A DNA stretch of 63,803 nucleotides, counting the filler, from Sphacelaria rigidula (Eukaryota): the NCBI GenBank assembly GCA_964200075.2. It is 6 parts of 6 records of this genome, joined end to end, with 100 filler letters (N's around TTAATTAATTAA, not from the genome) between each part and the next. Parts side by side here need not be neighbours in the genome. Positions count along the whole stretch, not along the records: positions 21,303 to 31,853 come from CAXNAA020006292.1; 5 more parts are not named here. One strand, 5' to 3'. Made by a program: the position numbers and the translations under genes. Shown piece by piece: positions 10,400 to 47,665 of this stretch. Within the stretch, counting starts at the first letter, position 1. Each line of letters opens with the position of its first letter. The notes below the pieces were generated by a model. It did not search any database. It worked only from the letters and a program-made list of their open reading frames with translations, and was not told the origin of the DNA.

Positions 10400-10551
10400 A
10401 AGGGGGAGGGGGGGGGGGAGGGGGGCACTCATGATCATGCATGCCATAGTCGTCTGACCGTTGACCTCGCATCCCTACAAAGCCAGGGCGGAGCACGCCG
10501 GGTTTTCGCCGGCCCAGGCTCGCACTTAATCGCCAAGCGCGAAGCGCCGTG
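10400..10551 (-). mobile_element. 3' end of poly(C)-tailed LINE, family 2
   Basis: Reverse complement reads TTTGTAGGGATGCGAGGTCAACGGTCAGACGACTATGGCATGCATGATCATGAGTG then a C tract. Other copies at 13575-13612, 21303-21375, 33648-33750 and 43880-44035. Confidence 0.75.
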
Positions 10552-10651: not shown

Positions 10652-10731
10652 TGCTCCGTCTCGAAAGGGATGCGTGGTCAATGGTCAAACGACTAAGGCA
10701 AGCAACAAATGAGTACGCTCCCTCCCCCCCT
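10652..10731 (+). mobile_element. 3' end of poly(C)-tailed LINE, family 1
   Basis: TGCTCCGTCTCGAAAGGGATGCGTGGTCAATGGTCAAACGACTAAGGCAAGCAACAAATGAGTACG followed by a C-rich tail. Confidence 0.8.
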
Positions 10732-10946
10732 ATCGTAGGATGACCCCTGGGCACGTAGATGCGTGTTCTGCGCTATAGTTGATGTGTTACGTGTGAGGAC
10801 AAAAATGGAAATTGTTCTTTGCGGATTTCATTCTCAACGGATTCGCGGCCTACCCCACCTGCAAAAAGGCTGCGCCACCGAAGGGTCGCGCCCCATGGAA
10901 TTACAGGTGGGAAATAATATGTTATTTTTATTTATATCATATAACA

Positions 10947-11779: not shown

Positions 11780-12050
11780 CATCTCTTTTCTTCTCTTCTA
11801 CTTCTTCTCCGTCCCTCTCCTTTCCTTCGATGTTTTTTTTTTCTGGTTTTCTATGCACTTCAATCCCTTGTTTGTTCTCTCTCGCTCTTTTTCTCTCTCT
11901 CTACATACATATATCCACTTTCTTCTACGACTGCTAGTGTTTCTGTTTTGTGTAACTTGGGTACATGTACCTTGTGAGCACGGCTGCGTCCCTCGGGGAT
12001 CAGTTAATGTGCTACAATCAACCAATCAATCGATCAACCAATCAATCCTT
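11780..12050 (+). mobile_element. 3' end of (AATC)n-tailed retroelement with pyrimidine-rich 3' UTR
   Basis: T/C-rich tract, then GTGAGCACGGCTG..GGGGATCAGTTAATGTGCTAC and an (AATC)-like tail. Confidence 0.7.
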
Positions 12051-13305: not shown

Positions 13306-14227
13306 ATGTAGCATAACAATACGAAAGGGTGTGGGACAGCGCTTTCTCGAAACGCAACCCGAAATTCGTAGGCCAACTGTGTTTTTGTTTCTTGGGGAGC
13401 ATTTCATGAGCACTTCACCTTCAGGAGGTGATCGGCCTGGGACAGGTTTTTCATGGATCGAGGTTTTTCCACGCAGCCTTTGCCGCCCTTGTACACCGCG
13501 TTTTGGTCAACTACGACCACCTCATGTATACTCTCGTCTTCTTCTCTGGGCGCCAGGGGGATGGGAACGCGTGAGGGGCGGGAAGGGTGTACTCATGATC
13601 ATGCATGCCATAGGGCTATGCTTTACTCTTGTTTGAGGCTTCAACAATGCTGCGACCATGTGTATGAACCATGAGCATCTCGCACGAGCCATACTGTGGC
13701 TTTCCTGAACGATTAGCGCTGTCGTGCCTATGACTCTTTATCCTGTAGGAGCGGGAAAGTGATGGGCGCTGGCCATACTCGTGTTGTAAACCAGTTCAAA
13801 CAAGACCCAAGACAACCATTGAACGTATCCATACATAGCCTGACCCGGCTAGGTGATTTGATCGAGTTCACTTGGTCATGTATTCGGCGAGCATCAATGG
13901 CGTGTGCAAATAATTGCGTAGTCTTTCCGTCTCCAAGTGTGCACTTTTGTCACCATTCGTGGTATGCGGTTCAACACAAAAAGTCGCGGCAACCTAATTT
14001 ATCAAGAGATCGAAGCCAAAAAAAGCACATCGTACGAACCTGAGCAAGAGCTATCGTGATAATTATCGAGTGCTATTTGGAGGGCAGTGCAACCCTATTG
14101 ATCAACGTTTGAACCTCTCCGACCGTTTGTCGTTCGTCAGCTGTTGGTCCCCATGGGTCTGCATCTCGTACATGTATATCTGAAGCTCTATCGCTGCACA
14201 TGCCGAACCCCAATTCAACATGGAAAA

Positions 14228-15589
14228 TTAGAATTCGATCTTGACATCAATTTCGATTTTGTTTTGTTCAGACACGCCCTGATGAGGCACAACTGCACAA
14301 GATGAAGCAGCGGCGCTGCTCATGTGCGTCCGGCGCTCTACTGCGTTTGCAGTATATCTACATACCACGGATACATACAAAGTTCGGGCTGGTTTACGCG
14401 TCATTTCGTCCGCAGCGCACAGCGTTCGACAGGTGCACCTTTCGGCGCCACGCAGGGGTGGGAGGAAGTACTCTTTAGTACCCAGCAAATGCTTTCCCCA
14501 CCCCTCACTTTCGTGTAGTACAAACACTCTTGCGCATTCTCGAGACGAGCACATGCGACATCTCGATGCTTCCTCGTCGGGATCATTCACTGTATCGGGG
14601 TGGCTCCCTTGGTGACGTCTACTCTACAAGGGGAGAGGGGGCAGTACAGGCACAACCCACGCATTCCTACCATCTACGGCGGACTGCTGCCGAAATAGCC
14701 CCCCCCCGAACCGGCGAAAAACGTGCACGGAGGTGATGATCATACATGCCGTTAGAGCTGGTTTCGGGCTGCACGACGCGACTCATATGGGCGTTTTAGC
14801 TGATTTCAGACTGATACACGCCTGTCATGCGGGCGAAAGTGCTGCAAACGAGCCCAATAGTGGGATCGCAGCCGGTTTGTCGGACGGTCTCCGTTGCACT
14901 TTTTGTGGGAGGGCTATCTCGGCATTAGTCGGCGGGCGCCGTGTTACTTGGGGACACACTGCCGCAGTACGCTACAGTACAATCCCACGCCACCCCTGCC
15001 ACAAGGTGCCGTACTGCCTGTTCGGAATCGATCACCCCGCGAGTTCACGCCCATCGTCGGCGTTGCGGGTTAAATCATTTGTCTAAAGTTCTCGAGTTAT
15101 CGTGTTTTTCACGTACTCTACTACAGTACTGTACCGTGTAGTGTAATTCAAAATTGCTGGATATCTGGATATACGACAGTAGACGGATCGGGTCAAGCGA
15201 CCCCCATTCACCACCGTGTACAGAAAACAAGAAAACTTGGACGTAACATGGCGTTTTGCTTACATTCCATTTTCATCAGAGGATTGACGAATATGTTTCT
15301 GTTGCAATGCGTCCGTTATGCCCGCGAGAACGTCATGTTAGGTCGATCTAATTCATACCGGCGGAGCCCCACTACACTTGTAGTCTGGCGCAACTACATG
15401 CTCCAGAACTCACTTTGAATTACAGACACATCACTACAAGTACATAATCGTCCGCAAAATGCAAAAATGCAACAACAACAAAAAGGGTACTCACGTATAC
15501 GCCAACAGGAAGCGATTCAGCCCATCGTTACCATCATCTTTCTGTCCGTTGGATTTACTTAAGTCGATGAGCACAAAAGGTTGCGCCAT
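14228..15589 (-). CDS. hypothetical 107-aa protein, 4 coding exons
   Basis: Exons 15589-15495, 15298-15264, 14589-14509 and 14340-14228; all introns GT-AG with compatible phases (2,1,1). Translation MAQPFVLIDLSKSNGQKDDGNDGLNRFLLAYTNIFVNPLMKMELNDPDEEASRCRMCSSRECARVFVLHEIERRTHMSS...KIEF*. No family recognised. Confidence 0.5.
14682..14930. mobile_element. 249-bp MITE, GAC...GTC termini, 4-bp TSD GGCG
   Basis: Termini GACTGCTGCCGAAATAGCCC and GGGCTATCTCGGCATTAGTC; GGCG at 14678-14681 and 14931-14934. An inverted copy lies at 62478-62729. Confidence 0.85.
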
Positions 15590-21302: not shown

Positions 21303-21375
21303 CGACTTTGTAGGGATGCGAGGTCAATGGTCTTATGACTATGGCATGCATGATCATGAGTACACCCCCCCCCCT
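21303..21375 (+). mobile_element. 3' end of poly(C)-tailed LINE, family 2
   Basis: CTTTGTAGGGATGCGAGGTCAATGGTCTTATGACTATGGCATGCATGATCATGAGTACA followed by a C tract. Confidence 0.78.
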
Positions 21376-23254
21376 CCGGCGGTCGTAGGAATTGTTTTTT
21401 CCACAGTAAGAAACACTCAATATACAGCCATTTTCGGGCGACTTGGGTGAAGTAGCGCCCATGACCGTTGGCCCTATCTGCCACCACAACACTGGACGCA
21501 AATTGGCGGTGAAGATAGATGCGCTAAGCTCGATTGAGGAAGCATTGCAGATCATTGGGGTATTTGTCTGGTCTTGTTCTTGTCGTGGAATGGTAATGTG
21601 CAATGTAGTGCCGAAACTCATGAATATAACTTGGCCTTAGCTCCGGAGGTATGCGAAGAATGAAATAATCATTCCCACGAATTGTTACTCTTTATTTTAC
21701 TTTTTCACTTTTTTACTTTTTTATATATACGTGGGATTTAGTAACCCTCCCCCCCCGAAAACACCCAGGATTGAAAAAGTCGGCGTAGGGCCTCGCAGTT
21801 TTTTTTAGCACCCCTGTACATACTAGAAAATATGTAGGTGTGTTTCACAAATGATGACGGATATCCCAGAGAGTGCACTACCCACATACATGCGTCAAAC
21901 CTCTTGACTCGCACCCCTACCTAATGCGCACCGTCTCTTTCCACCCGCTGTCGCTGGCACCTTTTCCACAAACCAGACGATCCTCCCCGACGGAGACACG
22001 ATCGAGCTCGACAAGGCCTTGGAGGATGTCGTGTCTGATGTCGCCGGAGTCGAGAGTGCCTAGCTGCTCGGCATGATGAGTCCAAGTCTTTTCGATCGTG
22101 AGTACCCGCCTAGTCTTGAATGTGTCGGTATCGTCCTCACGTGGTGCCTAGTAAATGGATACGTTTGGAAGCATCATCCCCATACGGGACAAAAGGACGT
22201 CCTGTTTGCGCCAGTTTCTAATTTGAAGTTGTTGAAATTCGCCCAACTGTACTGAAGCGCCCGATTTATCGACTGTAACCTGCCCTATTAACCTCTGCGA
22301 TCCCCCGTACCCTTCGCCGCTGCCCCCGATCAATCATTTCCGCAGGATCATGCAGAAGACGTGCAAGACGCATCTCTTCCATGTGTCGACGCTCGGCGTG
22401 ACATCAAATTGCACAGAGTCGGCGATTTGTGTACGCCACGTACTGTCCCTCAAGGAGGAGAGCAGGGATGTGGGGCAGGAGCGGTGGTCTTGGAGCCTAC
22501 CGAGACCCAGCGTCCGGTGTTCGTTGTACCATTGATTGCTGTTCAGCACAGCATGGTTTTTTGTTTTGGTTAGCCAGTTCCAAGTACTCCCGGTGTTTTG
22601 CAGCTGATTTGTCGATGCGGTAGTATTTGTTTTCCCGTGTTGATGGGTCAGTCCGTCGGCTCATGTTTCCAGTGCATTTTGGGAAATCCGATGCGGTTGG
22701 CGAGAGTCACTGGCAAAATCGATTTGCTGCAGCTCATAGACGGGAGGCGCTCCATTGGCTTCGTGCAAGAGAACTTGTTATGATCCGCTGCCATCGAGGG
22801 TGAGATCATGGAACAGAATCCAGGGTCCCACCACGTTTCGCGACTTTTCTCGGCACGAAAAGACGGGATATCAGCAGTCATATCACACGCGATGACTTGC
22901 GCTTTCAAAAACAACGACGGAAACTGCGGCGAAAGTTTTCAACAGAAACGTGATCTCAAGATATCCACGAGCCCCTAGTCCACACGAATGGTGGCATCAA
23001 CCGCAATTGCGAATGAATTCGGGCACAACCTGGCTAAATCGTATCTTATACTCGAACCGCACGACTCACTACTGTGGAGACCTCTTGAACGGTGCATTCT
23101 TCCACAAATGCGCGCCTGTGGGCCAGCGCGCAACATTGTCCAACATTATTCTGCCATTCCATTCAGGCAACGGGTGGCGGGAATGTTGCAACATGCTACA
23201 CCTGTAAACTTTTCGTCTCATCATCGGAACCGGCGCAGCGAGACAGTTATGAAA

Positions 23255-23452
23255 AAAACCTCACTCTCGATCGTACTTTCAACGCTCGATTTCACGGAAA
23301 CACTGTTGGATTTACCGGCAGGATTTTGCACCAATGTGCGAGGTAAGCGTTTTGTCGATTAATTATGCAGACACTCCCCGCCGCTGATAGCCATCCGAAG
23401 CCTACTCTCAATCGTATCATCTACTCTCAATCCCACGAAAACATTGCTGTTA
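23255..23452. repeat. two isolated TIR fragments of the 291-bp MITE family
   Basis: CACTCTCGATCG..TTTCACGGAAACACTGTT at about 23260-23307 and CTACTCTCAATCCCACGAAAACATTG at about 23420-23447. Confidence 0.55.
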
Positions 23453-24895
23453 CTCCTCGGCAGGTGCTAGAGCGCTTGCATGTACTGGGGACGGGCAACT
23501 GCTTCGACGTCAACGGACAGTGTTCTTCAGTGAGCGATCAGCTCTCGCGACATTTTTCACGGGTTCTGTGAAAAAATTGTCCACGAATTGTATACAACGT
23601 GGATTTTTCTGCCCAAGGTTGACGATCTCAAACGAGCGTTCGTCGTTGTATCCGTTGTAATATCGTGGCCTGATGTTCATTGCCACTTTTGATATTGCTC
23701 ATTGGGACGTAAATTCGAAAGAGCGTATTTACTTCGTTATTGTCGTGAAATGCCTCATAGGATGGTCCAGCAGGTGCAATTGTAACTATAGACGCCGGTT
23801 ATTAAATTCATTGATGAATTCTTCTTCGTTGACGGCGGATACGATGTTGTGTGGGTTGCGACGGGGCTTACCGAGCAGCTGCCGATACTGGTGTTCGAGA
23901 TGGGGGGAAGAGGGATAGGTTAGGCGTTCCTGTTGCAAGACGTATACCGTAAACGTGCGAACCTCGGCAGCACGTGCGATCATTGTGTGGAAGGTCAGAG
24001 TTCTTCCTGCTTTAGATCTAGACGTAAGATGAGACTGACTCCCGTCGGAAAATAAAAAAAATCGCTTGCTTCATAGTTTTGTTTGTGCACCCGCGTGTGA
24101 TGACTCAGGCTCGAGCCATACTGAATGGAATTGCAGCGGCTTTACCGCACTGCTGTCGGGTGAAGGCGTCGGGTACATTTCGAACACCGTTGTTACGTGC
24201 ATGCACCGAAGTATTTGCGCAGCAAAGCGTACAGCAAAAGACGCTGCTCCTTGCCCACAAGCAACGCACCACACCCGGATTTTTTTTATTAGTGGCAGCA
24301 CTCGGGTAGAGAGTCAACAACGTACCCGACTCTACCTCACTCTGACTAGAGTCATGAACATATCAACTTCACCCAAAACTTGTACGCCCTAAAAGAGAGC
24401 AAGGTTGGTTTGACACCTTGGAATGCCTTGCTCTACTGGTTGAGACGGTTCGAGCACACCTTGGTATTTTTCCGCCGTTGGCAATTTTTTTCTGGCCAAC
24501 CTTGCTTCTTCTCGGTCTCCGCTGCTTTTTCTCGTAGATCAGTCAAGTCCATACAAAGCTCGGATTTGTTGCTGGATTTGACCGATCTCTGTCTCCAGTG
24601 AGCGGTCTCCGAGAAACTGGTTGGCGTATGCATTGTAGGAAAATAACAAGCCCGGTCGCGTTGTGCTGTTGGGACAGCGAACCCCCCCCCCCGCCCAAGC
24701 ACCATTCCTTCTCCACCTTCCTTTCCTTCGCACGTAGACCAAATGCCGTGTATAGCCGCGACACATTCTTATGGCATTTTATTTTATGGCATCGGTCGGT
24801 ACATGGCCGAAAATCCGGCGAGACAGTTCAACCGACAGGTTTCAGGAGAGGGTGCAGCAATCTGGGCTAATGCTCGTGAGGAATCAAACAGAAAT

Positions 24896-25015
24896 TGATT
24901 GATTTGATTGATTGTCGCGCTTTGACGGACCCCAGGGATCATGATCCAGCCGTGGTCACACGATAGACGTACCCCAGACAGACCAAAATTGAAATACTCG
25001 CTGTGAAAAGAAAAA
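24896..25015 (-). mobile_element. 3' end of (AATC)n-tailed retroelement
   Basis: Reverse complement reads CAGCGAGTATTTCA...GTGACCACGGCTGGATC...GCGCGAC then (AATC)n; matches 7020-7130. Confidence 0.72.
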
Positions 25016-25602
25016 GAGGCCCCACCCATTTCCGCTACATCGATGTTGACGCGGTCAACAAAATGGGTGTGCTTGATAAAAATGAATATAGAAAATAGAA
25101 CACAAAAGGAACCGTCTCAGACCAAACTTCAAACCAAAAAAGAGGGAAAAATCCTGCCAGGAACTCCCGTGGAACAAAACCGAAGGAACAAATGCTTCGC
25201 CGATCTCTCGTTCAAACACAAGATGTATCTTCCTTTTTTTCTGTGATTTTTTGTCGCACATCGACCGACCTCCGAAGACCCCACCCATCTTCGCTCAGTC
25301 GCTTTTTAGTCGACAAAACAGAGGTGAAGGAAAATATGAAACCATTACAAAAGAAAACATGGATAAACGAACTGACTCGCAACGAAACGTAGCCAGCACC
25401 GAGACAAGATCGAAAACAAAACCTCGAAGGGAAATATATGCGTGAACAAACAAACGGAGTCAAATGACGTACAACCGCACCCCTCCGTGTGGGAAAAGTC
25501 AGGCAACGTCGATGAGGTCTGCATTGTCCCTCCGATGGCGGAAATCCATTGCGGCCCTCTCCTGCGCAAGCCCTTGCCCTCCCTCCCCCACTCCAACCCC
25601 GA

Positions 25603-25675
25603 TGCTCCGTCTCGAAAGGGATGCGTGGTCAATGGTCAAATGACTAAGGCAGGCAACAAATGAGTACGCCCCCCC
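25603..25675 (+). mobile_element. 73-bp poly(C)-tailed retroposon with 12-bp TSD
   Basis: CTCCAACCCCGA at 25591-25602 and 25676-25687 flanks TGCTCCGTCTCG...AAATGAGTACGCCCCCCC. Confidence 0.88.
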
Positions 25676-25689
25676 CTCCAACCCCGACG

Positions 25690-27600
25690 TGGCTGCTCGG
25701 ACTAGCTCTGCGCGGACACTGAGACTCTCCAAAGCCGTCGCCCTCAATCAGATATTCGCTCGCATCCGGGATTGATTGGGTCTCCGTCACGTCGGTGTCG
25801 GTAGGTAGGCCGGGTGATTCGAGCTTTGACTGTGCTGGAACTTCAACGGTCTCGGTACAAGCGGCTGCAGAGTTCTCGACCGAGGTGCCGTTCAGAACCT
25901 GCAGCAGCTCTGCCAGCTTCTTCTTCGCCTCGACGGCTCTCCCCAGCTCCTTCAAAACAGATACGCTGCTCTGCAGCATGCGCACCTCTTGGTGGTGCTC
26001 CTACACCGCCGCCACCCTGGCAACCTCTACCCGAAGTTGCGACGCTTGTTTCACGGCTCCCTGCATTGCGGTTATGATTTTATCGCGCTGTGCGGCGTAA
26101 ATGGCGACGCGTTTCTTTCCTCCGCGTTTTTCTCCTTCTTCTCCTTCAACAGGCTTCGGCGGCTCATCATGCCGCCGTCGTCGTCGAGGTTCTTCATTGC
26201 CTCTGGCGACTCAACGGCATTCACCGGCGGATCGTCGGCGCTGTCTCCCTCCGCGGGGGTGCCAGCTTCGGTCTAGGTAGAAACTCGCCGCTTCTTCCTA
26301 TCCGGCCCACTGAAGGTCAGCAGGTCGAATTCCTGCTCAGGGACTGCACTTTGCGGACCCCAGAAGGCATAGACGAGTAGATGAGGGGGAACCCAGTTCT
26401 TGGGCATCGCACGTGCCCCGCCGTCGGTTTTCCCACCCTGACTCACGTCCTCGCCGCCCTTCAACGACATGTCTGTCGAGTCACACTTTTTCCTCACCGT
26501 CTTCTGCGATTGCCGCTTCTTCCAATCCTCCATCGTTTTCTCTGCGTAACAATCCAAACATGCACCATAAGGCGCCCCATGAGATCCGGCATTTGTTGAC
26601 CGGAGGGAAGTTTGTGGCCAATCTTTACTTTGCTGCATGAGAGAATACGACAACGGCAGCGGCGTCAGTCAAACGTACACTTAGCGGTCAAGTTTATATG
26701 CGATAGGTCGGGAAGGTAGCAGCACATTTGTGCTTCACGGAAATAAAAGCGCACCAAGCGGCACCGTGACAAAATAAAATCGGAAATAAACTGCGACGGT
26801 GCGGTCGTACCCCGTCAGTGCCCTCCGCTGGTGATTGGTGTTCCCCCGCAGCCCAATCGTGGTCCCCTCATCGTACTGTGCTGCGGTGTATCGTCCGCAA
26901 CGAAACGGCTTTCGGGTACACCGTTCATGACGTCTTGCACACAAAAGCCCCTATGCAAACCGCTTCTTCCTGCGTACATTCTGACGACAGCATCGCCGCT
27001 GAACTCCGCCCTCCAGTGAAAGGTGCAAACATACTACAGTTGTCCACCTACGCCCACCGAATAAACTTCGAATTTGCGAACTCGCGATCAATAATGTGTT
27101 CTGAGATTGAGAGTAGAGCGTTGATTGAGAGTGGGTTTTATCATTCGTTTTTCTTGACCAATTTTTCATTATGTTCGTGCTTGTCTTTGCCTGTAATACT
27201 GGCGTGTGCGTTTAGCTACATGTCGATGTCCTACTGAGGGATATCAAGGGCTTCGGTGAGAAGCTACTACAAAAGGCGAATCGGGCCTCGCGGTACATTT
27301 CGGAGCCGAAACGATTCATTCATTTATTTACCGTTTCTCACTCTCGTATCTTTTACTCCCGATCCCACGAAAACATCGCAGATCCTCACCTGCCAATAAC
27401 GGCGACTAGGTCTTATTTGACCCCCTTCTTGATGGTTTCCCACGGATTCTTGACGGCAGAAGCTGTGTCGGTAAAAGTCTTGGTCTGCCGTTCCTTGTCT
27501 GTATACGTGGATGCGCGAGGGACGAGAGTTCAGGATGCCATCGCTTGCACGGCAATTTCGATAATTGCGCAGGTGTTTTCTCCCCCAATCGCGATCTGGT
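25690..27600 (-). pseudogene. decayed intron-containing gene, possibly a Myb/SANT-like transposon accessory protein
   Basis: Exon-like block at about 27600-27390 (TASAVKNPWETIKKGVK, ending in a GTGAGG donor) and a long block at about 26560-25690 (WVPPHLLVYAFWGP, then a charged coiled-coil-like region). Both carry in-frame stops and there is a frameshift. The family call is tentative. Confidence 0.4.
27090..27380. mobile_element. 291-bp MITE (inverted, diverged copy), 4-bp TSD GATC
   Basis: Reverse-complement match to 20796-21086 with the same 291-bp length; GATC at 27086-27089 and 27381-27384. Confidence 0.8.
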
Positions 27601-29589
27601 GAGATCGGCCCAACCTGACTGGTAATACTAGGATGATTCTGGAATGACTTTTTTTTGCACGAAGGGCAATTATGGCCGAGCGTTCAAGATCGGCACCCGG
27701 CAAACACTAAGGATCCGTTTAAAATCAGGCGAAGAACTGGGGGGGGAACGCCGTGATGCTGCTTGCACCCGTCAGCGTGGGGGCCGGCCAGCAGTGGCGG
27801 CGGCGGGAAGACACAACCAGCCACACTAAGATGGGGTTATACAGATACACCAGCATCGCAATGACCCCCTGGGGCGGCATTGTAACCCTCGCTGTTTGCT
27901 GGTCTGCTTGTCGCTTCGTTTCTATGCTGCTGTTGTATTTGCCCCGGCTCTACTTTAGTGTTCACTCCTGTACTGTAGGACGTAGGCTACAGGTGTGACT
28001 GGAGTCTGCGAGCCAATCATCGGCGTATTTTACTGCATAATTCACAACAAGGTCGCATTTCATTGGTGCTGGGTTCCGCTCGAAGTGTGCGCCTCATACT
28101 ATCCTTCACCAGTTACTGTTACTGACTTGTGCCGCGACTACGCAGACCTCTTTATCGTACTCAAGTAATATCCGAGATCCTCCGCATATTTTAAATCCTA
28201 CTGTTGCGGTGCAATTTATAAGTAACTCTGTAGTGAGTGTCACGAGTGCAGCACGGTCACCTCCCCGGCAGAATGCTCTATCAGCACGACCGTCTTCACG
28301 ATCGTGCGTACTCGCATTGTGTTGTAGCGTAGCAGGCGATTGCAATCGGCATTCAACAACCAACATGCGTGTGGGCACAAATCCAAACCCTCACCTGAGC
28401 TGAGCGTGGCGTGGCGTAGTGCCTCCACGTGAAGCCCGTACGGCTTTTGAACGTCGTTGCTGTCGAGCCACTTGATTTAGCCCCCCGCTGCACAGTTCAA
28501 AAATGTACTCGTCGTCTGATCATTGCGATCGGCTGCATTCATCGTGCGCTGTTTTTCACAGCCAGCGCGCTGTAGGCGATCGCGATGCCCTGGTGCGCCT
28601 TGAGGACGTTGGGGCTGATCGTATTGCTGTGGTACACATGTCCCCTGTCGTATGCCCACTGAATCAGGCTCGGGGAGGGTAGGATGATTGCGGCCGCCAT
28701 GTATTCCTTGGTATTGGTGGTGCTTCCTTGTGAATGAGCTGCTGTGGGCTGTGGTGTGCGTCGGTGGTTGTGGATGAGCGTGTGTGCGGCAAGCTGTAGT
28801 CGCTTGCTTCATCGTGCAGCGGATGACAGGATTCAGATTTGAATCTTAGCAAAAAACGCCCGTCCAAGACGCTGCAACTCTGTGTTTTTTTTTTAGTTGC
28901 TGTAAGAAGTGGCCGAACAAAAATTACGTCACGTTTTTGTCTGGACAAAAAGTGGGGGAAAATATTTATTCTGAGGGTGATTTTTGTTTATTATAGGAAG
29001 CGGCCTAACACTGTTGAAACTGACTGCCAGTTTTAGTGAGGAGGCAGGTTGATTGGGGGCATGATGTGGCTCTGGAGGTTGTTGGGTATTTTTTTTCTAA
29101 GATGAGAGGTGTTATGCGCATTCTAGCATTCTAGCAGATTCTTAACTGCCGACCCCCTTGCACTTTCCGACCTCCAGTTTACGGTACTCGTAGAACGAAC
29201 GGGTTATTATTCTTTGAGTTAGGGCCTTCATTATCGACAAATACACAAGATGGGAGAAGGTCTGAAATACGAATTTTCGAAAATTTCGGCATTCGCCTAC
29301 TGTAGGGCTCCTTATTATCTAGATCTACTGTTGCTGTTAGATATCTCATTACAGATGGTGCTGATCTCGTTGTTTGCTTGCCTTCGCCGGCAAAATACAG
29401 GACAGGATTATGCTACCTGCCCGTGTATGGCGTTCATAACTGTGGTAAACATATTTATCACAACCTCTCTGTGACACGGGGGGGCAGTCGGACAGGCTAG
29501 GGCGTCATCGACCGGCTCTCTCGGGATGCTGCAGCAGCACACATGAGTAAAAATACTGACTGTAGAAAGCCCCGTGCATAGATCACAGC

Positions 29590-30545
29590 ATGCTTGCTTT
29601 CTGTGAGTTGTATGCGCAGATACATCCAATCAAACCACTAGCTATACACTTTTCAGACGGTGCGGTTGCGTACCCTCGTAGCAGCACTGCAGGCAAGTAG
29701 GCAGCTACTGGATTGTTTCTGCTCTCGGCTTCGAAAGTGCGTATGTCTGCAAACGATGACCACCGTACTTGGCCCCAACACCTCCAACACTGCTGCCGGG
29801 GCACACACCGTCTAAGGAGACAGATACCACCAAACCGTGGTGCTTTTTACTCTACGACATAGCCCAGGGTGTCAGTAGCAAGGTTCTTGATTATTCTCGC
29901 ATGCTTGCGAGCGCCGCGGCGTGCGCCAAGGGCAGCTCTGCGGAGTATTGTGCTGGGGTCCGGAATATTAGGCATTCGCCAAACATGAAGGCTTGGCGAA
30001 AAAATCTCGCCGCTTCATTTTGGGAGAAGGTTCTAAAAGACCTGAGAAAACGCCTAAAATCACAACGATCTCCCAAAAAACTGTGTCGATAATAACGGTC
30101 CTTATACAATTACGTCAGAATTGAGCAGAGAGACGAGACTTTGGTCTGGACTAGCGGACAACGGACAACTGCTCCATCCGCATGGATCAGTAGCAGTCAT
30201 GTAGAAACTGTCAAGATCACGCCGCACACCAATGTACTGTTGCCTGCTGGACAATGTGAAGTTTCTCGCCTTTTCTAGTGTGAAGGAGTGGATTCGATCG
30301 GGTGTAAATCCTTGCGTAGAGGGCCTAGAGGCGCTTTCTGTCCGGACCGATTCGTCAAAAGGTTCCAAGAACTCTCCTGGAATGTTCTTATTGGATTTGA
30401 GCGTATGTTCACGGTCCCATCTCTTCTGGACGCCGTCACAGGATAGTTCGAAGACACAAACTACACCTTTGTCTTTATGCAGTATGTTGGCGAATCAGCC
30501 GGGGCCATACAGAAGGGCAACATTGATATTTTTGGAAAACCGAGC
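29590..30545 (-). pseudogene. possible decayed CACTA/CMC-type transposase fragment
   Basis: Minus-strand frames give FELSCDGV, KNIPGEFLEPFDE, RNFTL...D...GWSSCP, DFRRFL and YLPAVLLRG in the order expected for Transposase_21-like proteins, with stops and apparent deletions. Recognised by eye only. Confidence 0.35.
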
Positions 30546-31853
30546 CCACCCACACTGCAACAGTACGAGTAAGAGAAAGAAGGAGACGTAGCTCACAAAG
30601 TACACATTACGATCTCGTATGCACTGATCCTTCGCTAATGTCATGGTACAGTACATGAGGACCCCCATCACAGAGATGACAACCTCGAACCGGAGATCGC
30701 TAGGTGGTGGCGGCGACGACAACGGAGGTGGGTGCGGCAGTGGAATCATAGTACGTGGGTGCGTGTTTGACCACTTGGGTGCAATGCTTGTTGCGGCTGG
30801 GTTCGGTCCGAGAGGAGTGACCCAGGTCTGCCTGTTCGTGCAATCAGCTTCTATGAATTATATCCTCAATTAGTGTTATAGTGGTGAGAGAGAACGTGAG
30901 TTCCATGCAAGACGACCGTCGCAAGCCAACACATAAATCATGCCCACGCCATGTGCTCTTTGGTCCCTGCGGTTGGGCATCAACATCTTTGACGGTATTT
31001 TAAGGCTTGCGTACGAGCAGGATCTGACGTGTATTTACAACGACCAATTTCAATAAAAAAAATGCGGCGTTTCTGGCACAGGTTGTTGTTGGTCCAACAT
31101 TTGCCCTGTTCTGGCACTGGAAAAAACGGAAGGATACACATTACCTACACACCGAGCCCCGGAAAATCGCGGCACTCACAGCCCACACGCATCACCTCCT
31201 CCGTTAGCCCTTGCGCATCTTCTCCCAGCCGCCGTGTCGGAAAGGTGGCCGCGTGTGTGTTCCGGCGCGCGTCTGGCAGACACTTCTGTTTTTCGTTGAC
31301 TTCTGAAATGATTAGACCAAAAGCAACAGCACGACATGCTCCCATGGTTTTTGTTCGCGGGGTGATGGGGCTCTTAGTTGTCCATGTGTTGCTGTTTTCG
31401 GTTGCACACACCTTTACACGTGCCCTACTCTTATGTTGCCTTTCAAGCAAGCAGGCTGGCGATCCGTGCGGACATATTTTGAACAATTCCCTAAATGAAA
31501 TCTTGCTCCTTCGAGCTTTTGTTTGTGGGGAAGGTCACGCCTCGAGACACTAGAGAGTTTCGGGGGAAAAAATCAGAACTCAGGGATAAAAGCGAGAACG
31601 ACTCGATTGTTTACGCTTAAACCCCAGGTTTGTTTTATTTATTTTTACCACGTAGGTGTGGACCGTGGCCAACGTTTCAGGGTTTAGTCTTTTCTGTTCC
31701 GAATGCCACGTAGTCCGTCTCATGAGCTGAAAAGGTACAAGTCGCGCCGTGCTTTTCTGCGCTTGTACTCTGCGCCTAGCCATACGGTGTTACCCGTACA
31801 GCACGGGAGAGCATGTACAAAGCCGTGCTACACGATAGGTTGGGTGTTTAATT

Positions 31854-33191: not shown

Positions 33192-33645
33192 GGGGAAGGG
33201 GGGGGTGTACTCATTTGTTGCTTGCCTTAGTCGTTTGACCATTGACAACGCATCCCTTTCGCACCGTTCCTACTCCTAAGAGAGACCTCCAACATCTCGG
33301 CGCTCATTGCGTTTCTTCTATGCACTACACACAAAACCGTCTACATATCTTATCACCGTCCTGTTTGTGCCCATCTATCTCGTAGTATAGCCATCGTTTT
33401 CTCCCTACTGTCTAATGCATCAAACGATTTCATGCTACCTTCGTTTACTTCTCGCATTTCCCACTCTAGTACGTCCCGTTCCTCCTTGTATACTTCACAT
33501 TATGCCACTATATTACTTCTACTTTCTATTGCTTTGCCACAGGGGCAATTCTGTGCATCTACGTCCTCCTCCACTCGACTATTGGTACATCTCTTTCTTT
33601 CTGGCAGGTCCAGGTCCCCCACCCGAAATCGCAGTTTCAAGGCTG
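33192..33645 (-). mobile_element. 5'-truncated poly(C)-tailed LINE (family 1) retaining the ORF2 C-terminus
   Basis: Minus strand translates LKLRFRVGDLDLPERK...QNCPCGKAIESRSNIVA*CEVYKEER (degenerate CCHC knuckle typical of LINE ORF2 ends). It runs on to GCVVNGQTTKASNK*, then GTACA and a C tract. Confidence 0.8.
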
Positions 33646-33647
33646 TA

Positions 33648-33750
33648 GGAGGGGTGGACTTACTCAAGATCTTGCATGCCGTAATTATGAGACCATTGAC
33701 CTTGCATCCCTACACACCGGGACGAAGCAAGCCGGGTTTTCCCCGGGCCG
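33648..33750 (-). mobile_element. 3' end of poly(C)-tailed LINE, family 2, abutting the family 1 copy
   Basis: GCATGCCGTA..GACCATTGACCTTGCATCCCTACA..GCCGGGTTTTC matches 10425-10510. Confidence 0.65.
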
Positions 33751-36700
33751 GGGGGGGGCGGGGGGAGGGGGGGCGGTATTTTTACTCGAAATAATTGGGT
33801 TGCCGAAATGACATTAGTTCACGTCTTTAAAATGTGTTTCTGACGTCAGACCAAGGACTTGGACTGTTTGCAAGACTTTGATACGATTTCACCGGAAGTA
33901 AGAATTGTTGAACTGACGTTGTCACAGAAAAACACCAGTAGGGCGGCCGAGTCTCGAAGTTTCCCGCAGACCGTGCCGTACCCTGTAGGGTGGTGTAGAA
34001 AACGGTCAGCTCACGACCCTAGTTATTAATTGCGTTGGAACACTGCTGAAGCTATTGAGCGGCTTGCAGGGCCGGCCCTTCATACCTCTTCAATACTGTT
34101 TTTTGGACAACATATAAACATGTTTTGCAAGGCCAAAAAAATGGAGCGGGAGGGGGGGGATATGATGAAACAACTGAGATATACGGCATCCCTCGCACCA
34201 AACTGCGCACAAGGCAAGTGCGGAAAATTCGCGGGAACTTCGCTGGGCCAAGGCGATGTGCAACAGTGAGAGTATCTCCCACGTTATCGTCAAATAAGGT
34301 GTCCACTTGAATCATATATTTTGTGCGTTGAAAGATGTGTGTCCAGACATATTGCGCCGTGTGCTGTGCACAGATCATTGCCAAAGTCGCGCAGCAACAT
34401 ACTATAAGGGAACCTTATTTTAGTTTTCCGGCCGCCCCTTGTGTCATCAAAGATCAAAAGACAAAGAAGTAGGACCAGCTGCTGTGAAACAACTGTTGAG
34501 AGGAGGCCAGAAGCCACACCGGCGAGCTCGCTGTTACCAATGCTATTTCCCCATCATGACGAGAGCGGCGCGGGTCCTTGGCCCTTGCCTATCATGAAAG
34601 CACACACCGACGATGCCATAGTACGGAACAAATATTTTAGCGCTATCCCGGGATCCTTCGGGCACGCCGTGCCGAACACGCATCGGGCACCACACCAGTG
34701 CAAGAGCCGCAGCATGCCTACGAACAGAGCTTGCTCATGCTCATTCGACGAATGCTGGACCAGCTTTCGCGGTGCCCCAAACCGCCGTGGTAGTGTTGCG
34801 TGGTGCTTTCGGTGCCCGCGCCCATGCTGCAAAGTTAAAAATTCCTCTTGAAGATTCAAGCGGTTTCGACCAGACAAAATCACTCGTGGAACAGAAATCG
34901 TCGCAGTAGTCATCCCAATCCCAACACACTAACACTCCAACACGATCACTGTTGTTTTGGCGCAGCATTGGCAAAATTCGTACAGCAATCCCATATCTGG
35001 AGCGCAGTACACTGCGGTCATAGCACTGGTGACTAATGGTGACTGGTGGTGATTGACGGATGCGTGCTGGGTCGGTGCGCTGCGTTCGACATGCTTTTGT
35101 TACCTTCATTTATTTTGGGTTAATTCAATCACTGATCACACATACCTTTCAAGGTGAAGGCACTTTGCACCCATCAGCACACCTAGCGTGGCGAATATGG
35201 GTTCTGTTCCACACAAAAAACGTCCCAAATGTTTCCGACCAGTCGCTTCCAATACTTGAAAAATATCGACCAAAGAGAGTGCCACGCGTGTCGCTTTTGT
35301 GTCAACTCACTCTGTGCCGCTGCTCTTGCGCTGTGCTGGGTGTGCCATCGGTGCTTTCACAAGTTTGCTCTGACTTGTGTGTGCTACGAACCATACCAAG
35401 CCTAAATGGAGATAGTATCACTCCGCCGGGAGTTGTTGATATTCTAACTTGCGTAGTGTTATGCTTCAACATGCACAGCTCGCTCACGGTTTTTTAGCTG
35501 CTTCTTCTCCGTAAGTTTCAGCGAAGTTGTCATGCATCGCAGACACACATACGTAGCCACTTAGCGAATCACATGGACTGTGGAGCATCCTCGAATTTTT
35601 AGAGACACGACGACAGCTGTAGGGGGGAGGCACAAGACTCGGCATGCTCGATACTACTGTACCCACAAGGAGCCACCCCAGCGTTACCCTATCGGTGTCG
35701 GTTGTGATGTACTCCACTCACCGTCTTACCGCCTTCCCGTCTTGTATTCGCCGCTTGTGATGCACTCACTCTCTCTCACTTCACGGGTTCATTTTGCGAA
35801 ATGCAGTTGCTATGCTTTCTGTGAGCTGTAAGCACTTGACTTGTTCATTTGTTCATTTGTTCATTCTGCCGCTTGTTGCGTGGTTTCTCGCAATTCTTCT
35901 GTTAGTTAGTTTGTTAGTTATACTGCACTGTACATGATGCTTACTTTCAAGTATTTACTGTTCACCTGGTTTTCCTTGAGTCCACAACTTGTACTCATGT
36001 GCGTGCGTGTACATTTTTCACTTGGGATCAGAGGGGTCAAACTATGAAGAAAAAAGATACCACACGCTGACAGTTCGATAACTGTGCTTGTCGGGAACAT
36101 TGTGGAATCCCGAATGGTTTATTTTGTTTGCCATGTGCGCCAACACCTCCTACGGTGTGAAGTAAAGTCGATCTCGGATAAAGAGTCAGAAGTGGCCTGT
36201 GTTGGAGGGAAATGGGTTGAGTGGTAACCCCAAATCAACGTTTGGAACTCAACCCCCCACACCTGTGCGGAGGTGCTCGGGCGCGGCGCCGCCTACACTC
36301 CCCTGTATTGAGTACTAGTGTACTACGTGTTGGAAAGGTTCAGTATACTGTAAGCGCAAGCAAGTAGGCACAGTTGAGTTATAACCTATGCAAGAAGACA
36401 ATATTTTAGGGGCAAGGATCGCTGGGACGAACTCTTTTTCCGCTACCGTTCGGCGACATTAACCACCCCAACATTACCGTAGTCTATATCCCGCACAACC
36501 GTAAGTAGAGTCTGGTGCCAAAGGCAATACGTGACGGCGAGTGCAATCATGTAGAGACACGGGAATGCGACAATGCACAATGCATTACACCCGCCCTTCC
36601 TGTTCCAATTCTACGGCCATGAACAACACGCCGAAATACATACCTCCTGTCCATGTATTCTTATACAGAAGTGTGTGCGTGTGGCACTCTTGACATTACC

Positions 36701-37910: not shown

Positions 37911-40900
37911 GTCGGAGAGAAATATGGTGCTGAACGAACTGGGCTCGGCGGTTGCTCTGTTACTTGTCATTGCAGACTTTTGTCATATTGACCTGCCTGC
38001 GGCCGTGCAGCTGAAGATCCAGCTCAACGCCCAAAAGTATCCTGCCGCTCTCGTCCGGTGGGTCAGGTCCCCCGCTACAAGTACTACAGTGTCACGGCAT
38101 ACGGTAGCATGCTGTAGAGGGTAGCTTAGGGTCTGGTACACTCGAGTTTCGTTCCATGAGGTCGCTGGAAGGTAAAGTGGAACCCTTACATGACACTTGT
38201 ACTTTTGCCATGAGCACGGCCCCTCAACCATCCCAGCATTTGGGGAGAGCTCTCAGCCGCGCTTAGTGCTATCTTACGTACAAGGAATCAAGTACTGAAA
38301 TATATTGCCATGGGTATACCGCGGAAAATTGCGGCATTGTAGCAGTGACAAAGCACATTATTTCCCGTCTCTCGCACCTCTCTCCGTCGAGTCAGGTGGC
38401 TGAGGAAATCCAATATAAGTCTACTGCGGTGTAGAGCTCTATTCGAGAGTTTTTGATAACACCCTGGCACTCATATCTGATGTTATAACACCCCTAAGCT
38501 CTTTATTTTTCGCCCTGTACCCGCCACGACCACCACGCACAGGGGTTCGGCACTCAAGTACGATGCATACAAGGAGCACACCGGCTATGCCAAGGGCTCC
38601 AACCAGGCAAGCCCCCCATATAGGCTGACGTTTTAATACATATCGAAATCAGCGCGTTTTGATGGAGCCAGTAAAGACATGTGAGCCATTTTTTTATCAT
38701 GTTCATGCACGCACCCTCAACCTCGAACCACGAGCTTGCGGACCAGGCGGCTGAGGCTTATTTATTAGCTGTCACCACGCAGAGTTGCTCCTTCATTTCA
38801 TGTCTGAAAATGCTAAACAAGGGATGCACTTGTTATTTACAGGGATGTGCACGCATTAAGAATAAATCCGCGGAGCGGATTATTACGGTGCGGTTTGTCA
38901 ATCCGCACCGCTCCATGGCATTTGTAGGGGGCGGATATCCGCTCAGTGACAATCCGTGATCTTTCCCACTGACGGATATCCGCTCCGCTCCGTACCATAA
39001 TCGAAAAATCCGCTCCGCAATAATCCGTGAATTTTCCGATGTACGGATATCCGCTCCGTATAGATTATAGCTGCGCGGTTGGAACCGTGAAACGCGATTT
39101 TCTACGGTGTGGTTTTATCCACTCCGTAGGTAATCCGTGCGTCCTCCGTCGCATAACTTACGGGTCGAACCGCTAGGAAGACACGGAATTCCACGGACGA
39201 AATTGTTCTGAATGCCGGATAACTTATAAATCGAATAAAAAAAAACATCGTTCTGTGTGAGCAATTCGCCGATACGGTTCTGAAATTGTGCTCCGTACTT
39301 CATCCGTGCGTTCTCCGTAGCATCACTCAGATCAAACCGCTGAAAAGCCATAAAATCCCACAGATGAATTGTTCCGATTGCCGGGTGAGTTGGAATTCGA
39401 AGTACAGAAATACTCGAGGGTCAGAACCTGGGGCTGGGCAGTCTCAGGACCCCCGAAAACCGGTTAGCCCGTAAGTCGTTCAATGATGAGCGCAGATGTG
39501 ATTTTATCTTGGAATGTGGAGGGGATGCCTAGTAGATCCCCAAACTTTGGCATCAAATGTCCACTAGGATAAGCGGTGGCACGCGAAAACACTTTCGAAT
39601 ATCCCCGACCACGAAAACACAACGAAAATCTCCCTTTTCAGTTGAAAGCTACTGTGCTGCTATTGACGCCATTCTTGAGGAATGTATTCCATGCTCTTTG
39701 TTGTGGTGGATGGCCGTAGTCCTGAGTCTAGCGCTGCTGCTGTTGCGCGTCTGCCACCCCGGCCCCCGTTACCCTGTCCTGTAGGGTGCCATTCAAAATT
39801 CAAGTATGTACTGTTCATTATTCTCAATTGATTTTTTATCATTTTCTCCAGGGATTCGACCTTACATGTGCGCTATTTAATCCGCCGTCCCCCCTGTCCA
39901 GCAGCTGGAAGTGAAAGCATAACAACTCCTCTCGTACTTTTTGGAATCATCCGCGGATATCCGTACATTTTTCGTGGATAACCGTATCGTTTTCACGGAT
40001 TACTGCGACGGTGCACCGCGGGGAATTGCCGCGGTTTATTCCACTGAGGGGGGCAAACCGCTCCGTGAAATAATTCATGCAAGGGATATCCGCTTCGCAA
40101 TAATCCGTGCAATTGTAGCGGGTGGATATCCGCTCCGTGAAAGTCCGTGAGTTTTCTCTCTGACAGATATCCGCTCCGCTCCGTACCATATTCGAAAAAT
40201 CCGTACCGCACCGTGACATTTTCTTTGGCGGATATCCGCTCCACAATAATCCGTGACATTTTCATTGGCGGATATCCGCTCCGTCACAATCCGTAATTTT
40301 CCACTCAGACGGATATTCGCTCCGTGAGGCTTCGAAAAACAAAACTCCGCACCGCGGGGCGGATTGTCCGCCGTACACATCCCTGGTCATTTATTGGTAG
40401 TGTTGCCAAAAAGTCGGACTTGTTTTCAATTCTCGTGGTTTTGTGTTCCTGAAGTCTCGGCGAGATTCTTGTGTGCTACAAATGGTACCCACACAACGGA
40501 TGCTTGATACTCTCCAGTGCATTTCATTTCCGTTAGTCTGTGCTTCAAGTGTGTAGCTCCGAGTCGGGAAAGTTGTCGCCATGTCTGTTACACCCCCCCC
40601 CCCCCACCCCCCCCCCCCCCCCCCCTGTCCCTTTCCCTCCCGCCTCTTCCATCACGCCCAGACAGATGCTGNNNNNNNNNNTTTTTCTTTTTTGTTTTCT
40701 TCGTGTTTGGTTGTCCCATCCGGTACGTTGTTCCCCTTCTCCTTTCCTCCCCCCCCCCCCCCCCCCCCCCCTCCCCGGGCTGATGTTTTCATTGAACAGG
40801 TGACGACAAATGGAGCAACAGGTGACAATCATTTGGCTAGCCACAACGGACGACCGTGGAGCGCGTACACGTTCGAGGAACTCAGGACCCAACTTGAGCA

Positions 40901-42603: not shown

Positions 42604-42667
42604 TACTCATTTGCTGCTTGCCTTAGTCGTCTGACCATTGACCACGCATCCCTTTCGAGACGGAGCA
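42604..42667 (-). mobile_element. short family 1 poly(C)-LINE end
   Basis: Reverse complement starts TGCTCCGTCTCGAAAGGGATGCG and runs to AAATGAGTA at the scaffold edge. Confidence 0.8.
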
Positions 42668-43879
42668 CTGGTCCCGAGGAAAGGGGAGGGGTCCAACTTA
42701 CGACGAAACAAAATGCATGAAGGACAACTTTGTTTTTCAGTAGGGTGTTGATCGCTGTTTTTTCGTTGCGTGCAGAAAACAGCGACCGAATTCCTTCATT
42801 TATATGTAATTATGTGTGTACTTATGTATGATTCTTCTGGATATTTCGATATGCACCGATAGGGGAGACCACCGCGAACTAAAGTCAAATGAACAGCATT
42901 CCATACAAATATATCATCCTTGTTTTTAAACTGCACTGTGCTCCACCTCTATGCCGGTGGACTGCCGAAGAAAATCGAGCAAAATGCGAGCTTTCTTGTG
43001 GATCATTCTCTGTACGTATAAATGTACTACAAACGGCGCCCTCGGCAAGAGTGCAAGGGCGTCATGATCATGGTATTTTTCTCGGACCCGCAGTCAAAAG
43101 GTTGGGCATAAATTGACACGCTGCTCAACACAGTGAAAGAATGCTCTATATCACTATAGGCAACATGTCTACGAATGTCCGACCCTACACAATCCTACTC
43201 CTAGGAATGAGAGTCGTGATTGTCGCCGGCGATGGTTTGTGCATCGTGCTGTGATGCGAGTTATCTCTGGCAAACATAAATATCGTACGGTGCTACTTTT
43301 GGGTCAACTCTCTCTACATCCATTTTGTCGTGGTGGTGTACCCCTCCCTCAATACACCATGTTTTTTTTCTTATGTTCGCATGCAGTGAGCCGCCAACCC
43401 CTCTGTTGCAGCTGCGCAGAAATTCTCCAACTGCTGCCCCCCCCCTCCCCCGCCATTTCTGGTCCGGCGAGAACCCGGCGTCGTCCGTCCCGGCTTTGTA
43501 GGGTCGGACCCCCGATGGGGTCGGCGTCGGTTGGCGATGACGCTACAAAACAAGTCACTCTTTGCGTAAGCTAGGCAACCAGGTCACCGATTGTTTTTGC
43601 GCGCTTGTGTCTTTTTGCGGTAACCATGATGGTAGTCGAGCTAGACCATGTTGTGTGGCGTGGAAGAACCTCAACTCCTCACAATGAAGATGATCGCACT
43701 GCGTCGTGTTTACATGGTGAGACACCCACGAGGCAGTGTATAAGCCGTGGCTGTCTCTGGAAGTGGTGATACCAGAAAATAAAGCAGCTCATTGTAGGCT
43801 GTCATCCAAATGCAAGATAATCAGCACGGTTCGAGTCGAACACTCTTAGTAGGTTGCAGCTCACCCCTCACTCGACTCG

Positions 43880-44035
43880 CCGAACACACCACGGCGTTTC
43901 GCGCTTGGGGATTGATCGCGAGCCTTGTCCAGCAAAACCCGGCGTGCTCCATCCCGACTTTGTAGGAATGCGAGGTCAGCGTTGATCTTATTGCTACGGC
44001 ATGCAATTTCATGGTCTCCCCTCCCCTCCCCCTCT
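43880..44035 (+). mobile_element. diverged family 2 poly(C)-LINE end
   Basis: CACGGCGTTTCGCGCTTGG..AAAACCCGGCGTGCTCC..CTTTGTAGGAATGCGAGGTCA followed by a C-rich tail; matches the reverse complement of 10420-10551. Confidence 0.7.
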
Positions 44036-44182
44036 CCGTAGTTTTTGCATCCCCATCTGATACCCTATCGTGCGATCTGTCACTCGCCAGTCTAATTCTA
44101 CCTTGCATCCCGTGCGGTTATCCTGTCTTTGACGTGGTGTTGCACTACCTATTGGATCCGTGTCTGCTTGTCTTGAATCCAG

Positions 44183-45709: not shown

Positions 45710-45744
<35 letters not shown>

Positions 45745-47479: not shown

Positions 47480-47665
47480 TTCCGTAGACATTATTTGTTT
47501 CCTTAGTCTTCTCTGTTGTTCTGTCACACCTTTTCTGGTTCTTCTCTTTCCTTCAACGAGTGGTTCGGTTTCGTTTTGTCTCGAGTGCGTTCATCATGTG
47601 ACCACGGTTGGATCAGTGAAGGTGCGACAATCAATCAACCAGACCAAATCAAATCAAATCAAATC
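47480..47665 (+). mobile_element. 3' end of (AATC)n-tailed retroelement
   Basis: Pyrimidine-rich tract, then CATGTGACCACGGTTGGATCAGTGAAGGTGCGAC and an AATC/AAATC tail. Confidence 0.7.

Follow-up and report, generated by a model that had tools for sequence, protein, structure and literature searches.

The stretch of DNA analysed here, called the window below, comprises 63,803 bases from assembly GCA_964200075.2 of Sphacelaria rigidula and consists of six 10,551-bp pieces joined by spacers of the form N44-TTAATTAATTAA-N44. Its central feature is a short repeat copy in piece 3 (21303-31853), located at 25603-25676 (73/74 bp), which reads TGCTCCGTCTCGAAAGGG...AAATGAGTACG followed by C8 and belongs to a family of retroelements lacking long terminal repeats (non-LTR retroelements) whose copies end in a run of C. 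Searches of the window with nhmmer and BLAST led to 12 fragments of two related repeats, six of family A and six of family B, with at least one in each of the six pieces; an earlier note on the same DNA had already recognised about 11 fragments of two related families on all six scaffolds. A 33-nt word of the 25603 unit gave three matches in the window at up to three mismatches and none in 100 shuffles. Besides the window, the evidence comprised a few public contigs with relatives, contigs of four public runs (X1, X4, X5 and X6) aligned to piece 3, and the literature. We consider it probable that both families are retrotransposed via the C run, as set out below. The fragments, the direct repeat around the 25603 copy, read as a target-site duplication (TSD), and their relation to the second open reading frame (ORF2) of the element are as follows.

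25603-25676, plus strand: short family-A copy, 66-nt body (last 22 ORF2 codons, TGA stop, GTACG) and C8
25591-25602: left copy of the 12-bp TSD CTCCAACCCCGA; alternatively 18 bp from 25585
25676-25687: right copy of the 12-bp TSD CTCCAACCCCGA; alternatively 18 bp from 25670, with one mismatch
33198-33648, minus strand: longest family-A copy, broken ORF2 C-terminus with degenerate CCHC motif, 8-bp deletion near the end, C8 tail at 33198-33205
33661-33750, minus strand: family-B copy, head-to-tail with the long A copy and immediately upstream of it; C runs precede it at 33751-33773
7131-7258, plus strand: diverged family-A 3' fragment with C10 tail at 7249-7258, its 5' end adjoining a (CAAT)n-tailed repeat
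10652-10730, plus strand: short family-A copy starting with TGCTCC at the exact start of piece 2, tail CTCCCTC7
42604-42675, minus strand: short family-A copy; piece 5 opens at ...GAGTA with the tail cut off, and a C-rich tract lies before the 5' end TGCTCC
58091-58145, plus strand: old family-A fragment in piece 6, preceded by C6TC7
10405-10551, minus strand: family-B copy reaching the end of piece 1, tail C6TC11TC5 at 10405-10425
13586-13615, minus strand: family-B 3' fragment, about 30 nt long, tail C-rich and eroded
21303-21374, plus strand: family-B 3' end that opens piece 3, tail C10
43458-43504, plus strand: family-B internal fragment with C9TC5 about 11 nt upstream
43890-44037, plus strand: diverged family-B copy with a C/T-rich tail; the family continues further upstream (compare contig L005)

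For the long copy, the minus strand at 33198-33709 encodes the C-terminus of a long interspersed nuclear element (LINE) ORF2 in shifted frames, and the H of its CCHC motif is replaced by N, in agreement with the degenerate motif described earlier. A 48-residue piece of this C-terminus matched 16 proteins from public assemblies, several of which end in ...CVVNGQTTKASNK. Intact relatives show the motif CPCG..H....C, a C-terminus ...VVNGQTTKASNK and a TGA inside AAATGAGTAC. Profile scanning of contig collections gave four loci in metagenome_contigs (three of them useful) and two matches in genome_contigs, and none in viral_contigs. Family-A copies were available on the public contigs L001, L002, L003, L005 and L006, together with a short one, L009, from G001, a bacterial bin that evidently contains algal contigs. 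Contig L001 (5,110 bp), found by a scan with the alignment of the relatives, carries an intact ORF of 1426 amino acids (aa) with Exo_endo_phos at residues 235-461 (E 6.7e-13), RVT_1 at residues 807-1056 (E 1.1e-30) and the C-terminal CPCG-x8-H-x4-C motif. Its TGA lies inside AAATGAGTACG and the ORF ends at 4992, followed by GTACG, C10 from 4998 and then unrelated sequence; the stop about 5 nt before the C tail, as claimed in the earlier note, was therefore confirmed on an intact element. A second near-full-length family-A copy, L006, has a frame of 1382 codons. No second ORF was found in the 711 nt upstream of the ORF in L001, and no ORF1 in the visible sequence of L001 and L006, where both contigs stop within the 5' region and absence is no proof. 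The first approximately 200 nt of L006 (reverse strand), which belong to the 5' region of this near-full-length LINE, contain two tandem units of about 97 bp, each closing in a T run.

Family A thus combines a non-LTR reverse transcriptase (RT) with an apurinic/apyrimidinic-type endonuclease (APE) N-terminal to it, lacks terminal repeats, has a simple-repeat 3' tail and occurs in 5'-truncated copies: those of 74, 128 and 450 bp and those exceeding 3,600 and 4,900 bp share the end GAGTAC plus C run. It is an autonomous APE-type LINE of more than 5 kb with apparently a single ORF, and its 3' untranslated region (UTR) is practically nil, the last 66 nt being coding. The original assignment to the non-LTR retroelements is borne out by this intact ORF with APE endonuclease, RT and CCHC motif. 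The best relatives with solved structures, from a PDB search, were human L1 ORF2p and R2 proteins, and the Atlas and PDB searches gave an identity only to the level of a non-LTR RT with APE. Among named proteins, unnamed products of Ectocarpus sp. CCAP 1310/34 come closest, with 50-68% identity. RTE-type elements, as reportedly described by Malik and Eickbush in 1998, possess one ORF only, and their 3' UTR is exceptionally short and closes with a simple repeat. One ORF (1426 aa in L001, 1382 aa in L006, with both contigs stopping in the 5' region) and a 5-nt 3' UTR before the run were found here as well. Family A is likely a member of the RTE-X clade. The LINE clades in a transposon survey of Ectocarpus are CRE, RTE, RTE-X and unknown (PMC12477816). 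CRE was considered and rejected, because the endonuclease of family A is of the APE type. RTE-X in that survey amounts to seven families with 16,418 copies, and the most abundant Ectocarpus family is the non-autonomous RTEX-N1 (RTEX-N1_Ec32) of about 600 bp, whose 3' end is common to RTEX-1 and RTEX-2 (PMC12477816). Both systems hence show one long ORF with endonuclease and RT and an abundant LINE with a non-autonomous partner that shares only its 3' end, as family B does with family A; unlike here, the main text of PMC12477816 gives no tail composition or target preference. Family A probably corresponds to curated brown-algal RTE-X elements.

The similarity of family B to A is confined to the terminal approximately 65 nt (core AGGGATGCGWGGTCAAYGGTC..GACTA.GGCA.GCA) plus the C run; upstream of this, B goes on for at least 200 bp in sequence that has no relation to A. 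In the frame corresponding to ORF2 it has stop codons, and the TGA of A is out of frame. Judged from sequence, family B is a non-coding partner of family A that resembles a short interspersed nuclear element (SINE), with its 3' end common to that of the partner LINE. Shared LINE/SINE 3' ends are the 'stringent' pattern, as for UnaL2 and UnaSINE1 of eel and for CR1- and RTE-derived SINEs. A SINE head derived from tRNA, 7SL or 5S with an RNA polymerase III promoter was not found for B or the 74-bp unit in the sequence in view, which does not cover the full 5' part of B. ARAGORN reported no tRNA in the window, and Rfam gave no match at gathering score over the window and none at E up to 10 over L001 4600-5110. 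The retention of the LINE terminus in non-coding B points to selection at the nucleic-acid level, and is the pattern expected if the RT recognises that end. A candidate hairpin (GGUCA/UGACU) and a candidate terminal helix (UGCUC/GAGUA) of this end are 93.8% pairable. Two ribozyme folds were tried and rejected: the core residues of a hammerhead were not present by eye, and a fold like that of hepatitis delta virus was without Rfam support.

LINE tails are usually poly(A) or A/T-rich microsatellites. Here, every preserved 3' end reads GAGT(A/G)C and then a C run or C-rich tract. The regular expression GAGT[AG]N0-8C>=6 recovered six window ends with an uninterrupted run of at least six C, and three further window ends are older or eroded and C-rich without a long run, so that the 3' end proposed in the earlier note, GAGT(A/G) and a C tract, was met again. 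The external family-A copies carry the following tails after GAGTAC(G):

L001: C10
L002: C8
L003: CCTC7TCCTCCC
L005: C9TC9
L006: C13

All five end in C runs (C7-C13), each followed by a different, unrelated flank. Copies continuing past the C tract to a poly(A) had been named beforehand as an observation that would speak against C-tailed elements; neither shared sequence nor poly(A) was found past the run in any of the five. Over 15 3' ends (eight from the window, seven external), 11 have an uninterrupted C run of at least seven; the longest run has a median of 8, and C makes up 0.59 of the following 25 nt. It is therefore supported that the elements end at the C run and not in poly(A). In the run contigs, loose ends past the C10 at 21374 open with 10-16 more C (746 contigs of X1, 595 of X4, 118 of X5 and 65 of X6; 14-16 more in X1, X4 and X5), and many copies therefore have longer runs than those of the window. 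Such variation in length, C7 to C13 among copies and longer in the contigs, could also result from untemplated addition of the run, either by the RT at initiation (terminal-transferase activity or reiterative copying) or by a nucleotidyl transferase acting on the RNA, and the 5-nt 3' UTR would leave little room for a polyadenylation signal. We regard this origin as highly improbable: direct evidence for it was not found, the interrupted tails (CTCCCTC7, C9TC9) resemble mutated templated runs or merged target sequence, and untemplated addition alone does not predict the C-rich flanks found upstream of the copies.

These flanks were analysed for ten 5' ends. The C fraction of the 30 nt upstream is 0.47 on the sense strand versus a background of 0.25 (sd 9.4%), and 0.47 was not attained in any of 20,000 resamples, each of ten random 30-mers, which bears out the C-rich insertion sites claimed earlier. 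A C run of at least four lies within 30 nt upstream of eight of the ten 5' ends; the flanks are C-rich and not pure (C)n. The 5' end at 42667 is preceded by CCCCTCCCCTTTCCTC, that at 58091 by C6TC7 and that of the B copy at 33750 by C7TC6GC9, and the long A copy lies directly behind the tail of this B copy (head-to-tail, 33750-33198). Around the 25603 copy, the perfect 12-bp direct repeat CTCCAACCCCGA is present as previously stated, and in a local alignment of the flanks none of 300 shuffles reached the observed score. The same alignment also permits an 18-bp repeat with one mismatch (25585-25602 versus 25670-25687; CCCCCACTCCAACCCCGA upstream and CCCCCCCTCCAACCCCGA downstream), and the duplication can be read equally well in this way. 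In the perfect 12-bp reading the C7-8 falls inside the insertion, and an empty allele of 25591-25687 would read ...CCCCCACTCCAACCCCGACGTGG, the C8 run then being new. In the 18-bp reading the target had C5 at the start of the duplication and a single C stands between GAGTACG and the TSD. Under both readings the bottom strand at the nick is G-rich.

The 18-bp reading leaves only one unambiguous tail C, and the 25603 copy is therefore no proof that the RNA carries the run. For this reason a model has to be retained in which the RNA is copied only from ...GAGTACG(C), the nick falls at the edge of a pre-existing G run, and the C run is duplicated target. The match of CCCCCACTCCAACCCCGA with CCCCCCCTCCAACCCCGA, the single C before the duplication, the C runs of at least four near eight of ten 5' ends and the fact that microsatellite-targeting APE-type LINEs are likewise flanked by their target repeat (PMC3812793) would all fit. 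On the other hand, this model demands one additional C plus a substitution in the sole TSD, for which the 12-bp reading is perfect, a run of C7-C13 at every target of the five external A copies, and runs 14-16 nt longer than C10 in hundreds of contigs; such runs are rare elsewhere, with 35 of at least seven in the 63-kb window and few exceeding 13. Taken together we think it unlikely that target sequence alone supplied the run. In practice the tail and target models converge, like those for microsatellite-specific LINEs: when a copy is followed by a C run, its read-through transcript includes the run, which could pair with a G-run primer at the next site.

Piece 3 also shows how abundant the termini are. 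The following summed word depths were obtained for X1:

Bin 21303-21654 (B end): 3.6 million
Bin 25527-25878 (A copy): 2.8 million
Bin 25175-25526 (neighbour): 1,915
Bin 25879-26230 (neighbour): 1,300

The bins with termini thus lie about three orders of magnitude above their flanks in word depth, which is not copy number, and the ratios in X4, X5 and X6 are similar. Right after the B end, at 21655-23766, another highly repeated stretch reaches summed depths of 0.2-0.6 million in X1. The X1 contigs on 21303-31853 fall into two classes, one of depth approximately 1,000 with 2-5% differences and one of depth approximately 70 and identical (records 7 and 8), which suggests two genotypes or related species in one sample.

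Units starting with TGCTCC very often follow a C tail head-to-tail. Among the 15 joints listed (771 further joints exist), 12 lead from the C run at 21367-21375 to 25602-25606 (250 contigs in X1, 171 in X4), and a joint that goes back 74 nt from 25676 to 25603 was detected in 48, 43, 2 and 6 contigs of X1, X4, X5 and X6, respectively. Loose ends before 25603 are of two kinds, C runs and sequence that precedes this point in the LINE itself (...GGAGTAGGAACGG). A common start at TGCTCC characterises the short A copies (25603, 42667, L009 and probably 10652), and the longer ones are truncated at various places (128, 450 and approximately 345 bp). The variable 5' truncation expected from the earlier note accordingly holds for the longer copies and not for the short ones. 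No microhomology accounting for the fixed start was found in the flanks of the short A copies; possible explanations are a processed 74-nt RNA, template jumping, one truncated master copy or tandem duplication at the DNA level. Template jumping between RNAs is a property of the R2 reverse transcriptase.

If tandem duplication were the source of the arrays and of much of the copy number, the units would form a satellite derived from the LINE 3' end. The exact period of 74 in the joints 25676 to 25603 (48 X1 and 43 X4 contigs) and the invariable TGCTCC at the start of the downstream unit speak for such an origin. We nevertheless judge it improbable. Dispersed single units occur with different flanks (25603, 42667, L009), and a TSD surrounds one of these; the spacer of C between joined units is not constant in length, ranging from about 3 to 10 C; and many joints link a B-type tail to an A-type unit, which fits insertion or template jumping better. 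Moreover, Tandem Repeats Finder reported no 74-bp array in the window.

The explanation that we favour, and hold to be probable, is that the family-A LINE, family B and the 74-bp mini-copy spread via TPRT (target-primed reverse transcription) at C-rich sites, using the C run as tail and a G run as primer. The run would act like the microsatellite tail of other LINEs and enter the RNA by transcription of the donor copy; once nicked, the bottom strand would pair with it through its G-rich 3' end and prime cDNA synthesis. As the C run would be tail and pairing site at once, tail and target duplication would merge, and existing C tails would be preferred targets, which would give rise to head-to-tail arrays. 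In this explanation we infer the pairing step, the endonuclease preference and an RNA carrying the C run; the data themselves display the anatomy and abundance of the elements, their tails and arrays, the C-rich flanks and one TSD.

Several results weigh against retrotransposition via a C-run tail. A TSD was detected by gapped local alignment in only one of six copies with both ends in view; the flank alignments of the other five gave p about 0.3-0.5 versus shuffles, and a search for exact TSDs of at least 8 bp at seven ends returned only 25603, several others being without a 5' end in view. L001, L006 and L002 (5'-incomplete) stop in the contig on the 5' side and hence show neither a TSD nor a true 5' end, and contigs X5 record 20 and X6 record 29, which align only from 25670 on, as an allele with an empty site would, with their other parts not in view, were not counted as evidence. 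A lack of TSDs in most copies had been named in advance as a sign against the proposal; the clear TSD in one of six testable copies weakens the proposal in this respect. The 18-bp reading assigns seven of the eight C of the 25603 copy to target duplication, and the 5' boundaries in the flank comparison are alignment ends and thus approximate. Among seven further, older B copies from G001, those with a preserved end show no more than a short C/T-rich tail. Simple 5' truncation does not account for the fixed TGCTCC start that the short copies have. Finally, the terminal 74 nt fold no better than shuffles (z 0.1-0.7 for four units of 74-76 nt), and covariation of the two candidate helices was not significant, 203 of 500 shuffles scoring as high.

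APE-type LINEs that target microsatellites include Waldo (ACAY), Mino (AC), Kibi (TC), Koshi (TTC) and Dong (TAA) (PMC3812793). In these, tail and target consist of one and the same simple repeat and copies lie inside or next to it, which makes tail and target hard to tell apart (PMC3812793); family A may resemble them in this. Unlike them, the repeat is mononucleotide C, which is not among the families listed in that source (PMC3812793), the host is an alga and not an animal, and the targets are C-rich and not strictly (C)n, as illustrated by the 25603 site CCCTCCCCCACTCCAACCCCGA. For L1, whose endonuclease has the consensus nick 5'-TTTTT/AA-3' (PMC8565326), and for Alu, the similarities are a homopolymer tail complementary to a homopolymer-rich primer strand (here a presumed primer), 5'-truncated copies and, presumably, variable TSDs and short partners mobilised in trans. 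In contrast to L1 and Alu, the tail is C instead of A and cannot stem from ordinary polyadenylation, so that it must be templated or otherwise made, the ORF stop lies 5 nt from the tail, and the partner B carries the LINE's own 3' sequence. Literature searches, covering texts outside the supplements, gave no description of a poly(C)-tailed non-LTR element; the nearest match concerned L1 elements of vertebrates, whose 3' UTRs can contain poly-C tracts and nevertheless terminate in poly(A) (PMC5381506). A C-tailed LINE is thus an unusual and not a fundamentally new variant of a known mechanism.

As ordinary polyadenylation cannot produce a C homopolymer, the family is a natural test of the role of the tail in TPRT, where pairing with the nicked strand, reiterative copying and recognition by protein are candidates. 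The 74-bp unit with its fixed 5' end and arrays could offer a view of RNA processing in vivo, or of template jumping. Weight would be added to the finding if the 74-nt unit is a defined RNA, and taken from it if a (C)n tail is already on record in curated libraries such as Repbase or the supplement of PMC12477816. More tentatively, we suggest as a possibility about which we remain doubtful that one mononucleotide (C)n serves as tail and landing site, with a G-run primer in place of the T-run of L1, and that a minimal mobile unit of 66 nt of coding sequence plus C run, with a defined TGCTCC start, multiplies to thousands of copies and concatenates head-to-tail, either because the RT jumps from one short C-tailed RNA template to another or because units insert one after another into tails. 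The element would then be a main generator of G/C homopolymers in brown-algal genomes.

The window contains 35 C/G runs of at least seven versus 5.6 expected from composition. Six of the 35 sit directly on A/B ends, with a few more just upstream of copies, and A/T runs are equally enriched (44 versus 6.0 expected). The suggestion of the earlier note that the lineage seeds many of the G/C homopolymers hence holds for these six ends, as a modest contribution next to the equal enrichment of A/T runs. The C11 at 24682 lies in a bin of baseline depth and hence belongs to no abundant repeat. The longest C runs of the window, C13AC19 (40593-40625) and C23 (40749-40771), flank an N10 gap at 40672-40681 and are not preceded by the GAGTAC end word. 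Boundaries of the pieces also fall inside A/B copies: three of the six pieces begin there (10652, 21303 and 42604) and one ends there (10551), a short unit having its first base at 10652 and the base at 42604 immediately preceding the tail. The picture resembles assembly breaks caused by the repeat and its homopolymer. For the annotation of brown-algal genomes, it is relevant that element ends coincide with contig breaks and account for part of the G/C homopolymers.

Other repeats were observed in the window. A second dispersed family with a (CAAT)n end occurs at 7021-7130, 11973-12047, 24898-25011 (minus strand), 45710-45841 (minus strand), 47544-47662 and 60090-60153, which hints at a further family, non-LTR or SINE, whose tail is a microsatellite; one of these (CAAT)n tails is adjoined by the A fragment at 7131. 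A C run followed by TA(T/C)CGTAG(G/C)ATGAC... was detected at 10724-10745, 55865-55898 (minus strand), 56103-56130 and in L001 at 4998-5025, and two TA(T/C)CGTAG ends face each other around a core of approximately 200 bp at 55898-56103 (G13 ... C7). The C run with TA(T/C)CGTAG may be the terminus of another repeat that is a landing site for the LINE. The loci 14681-14930 and 62478-62730 (minus strand) share 85% identity over approximately 250 bp, spanning both sides of an internal C9/C10 run, and the part after the C run resembles the CCGGCGAAAAC segment of family B; the two may represent a composite amplified as a unit.

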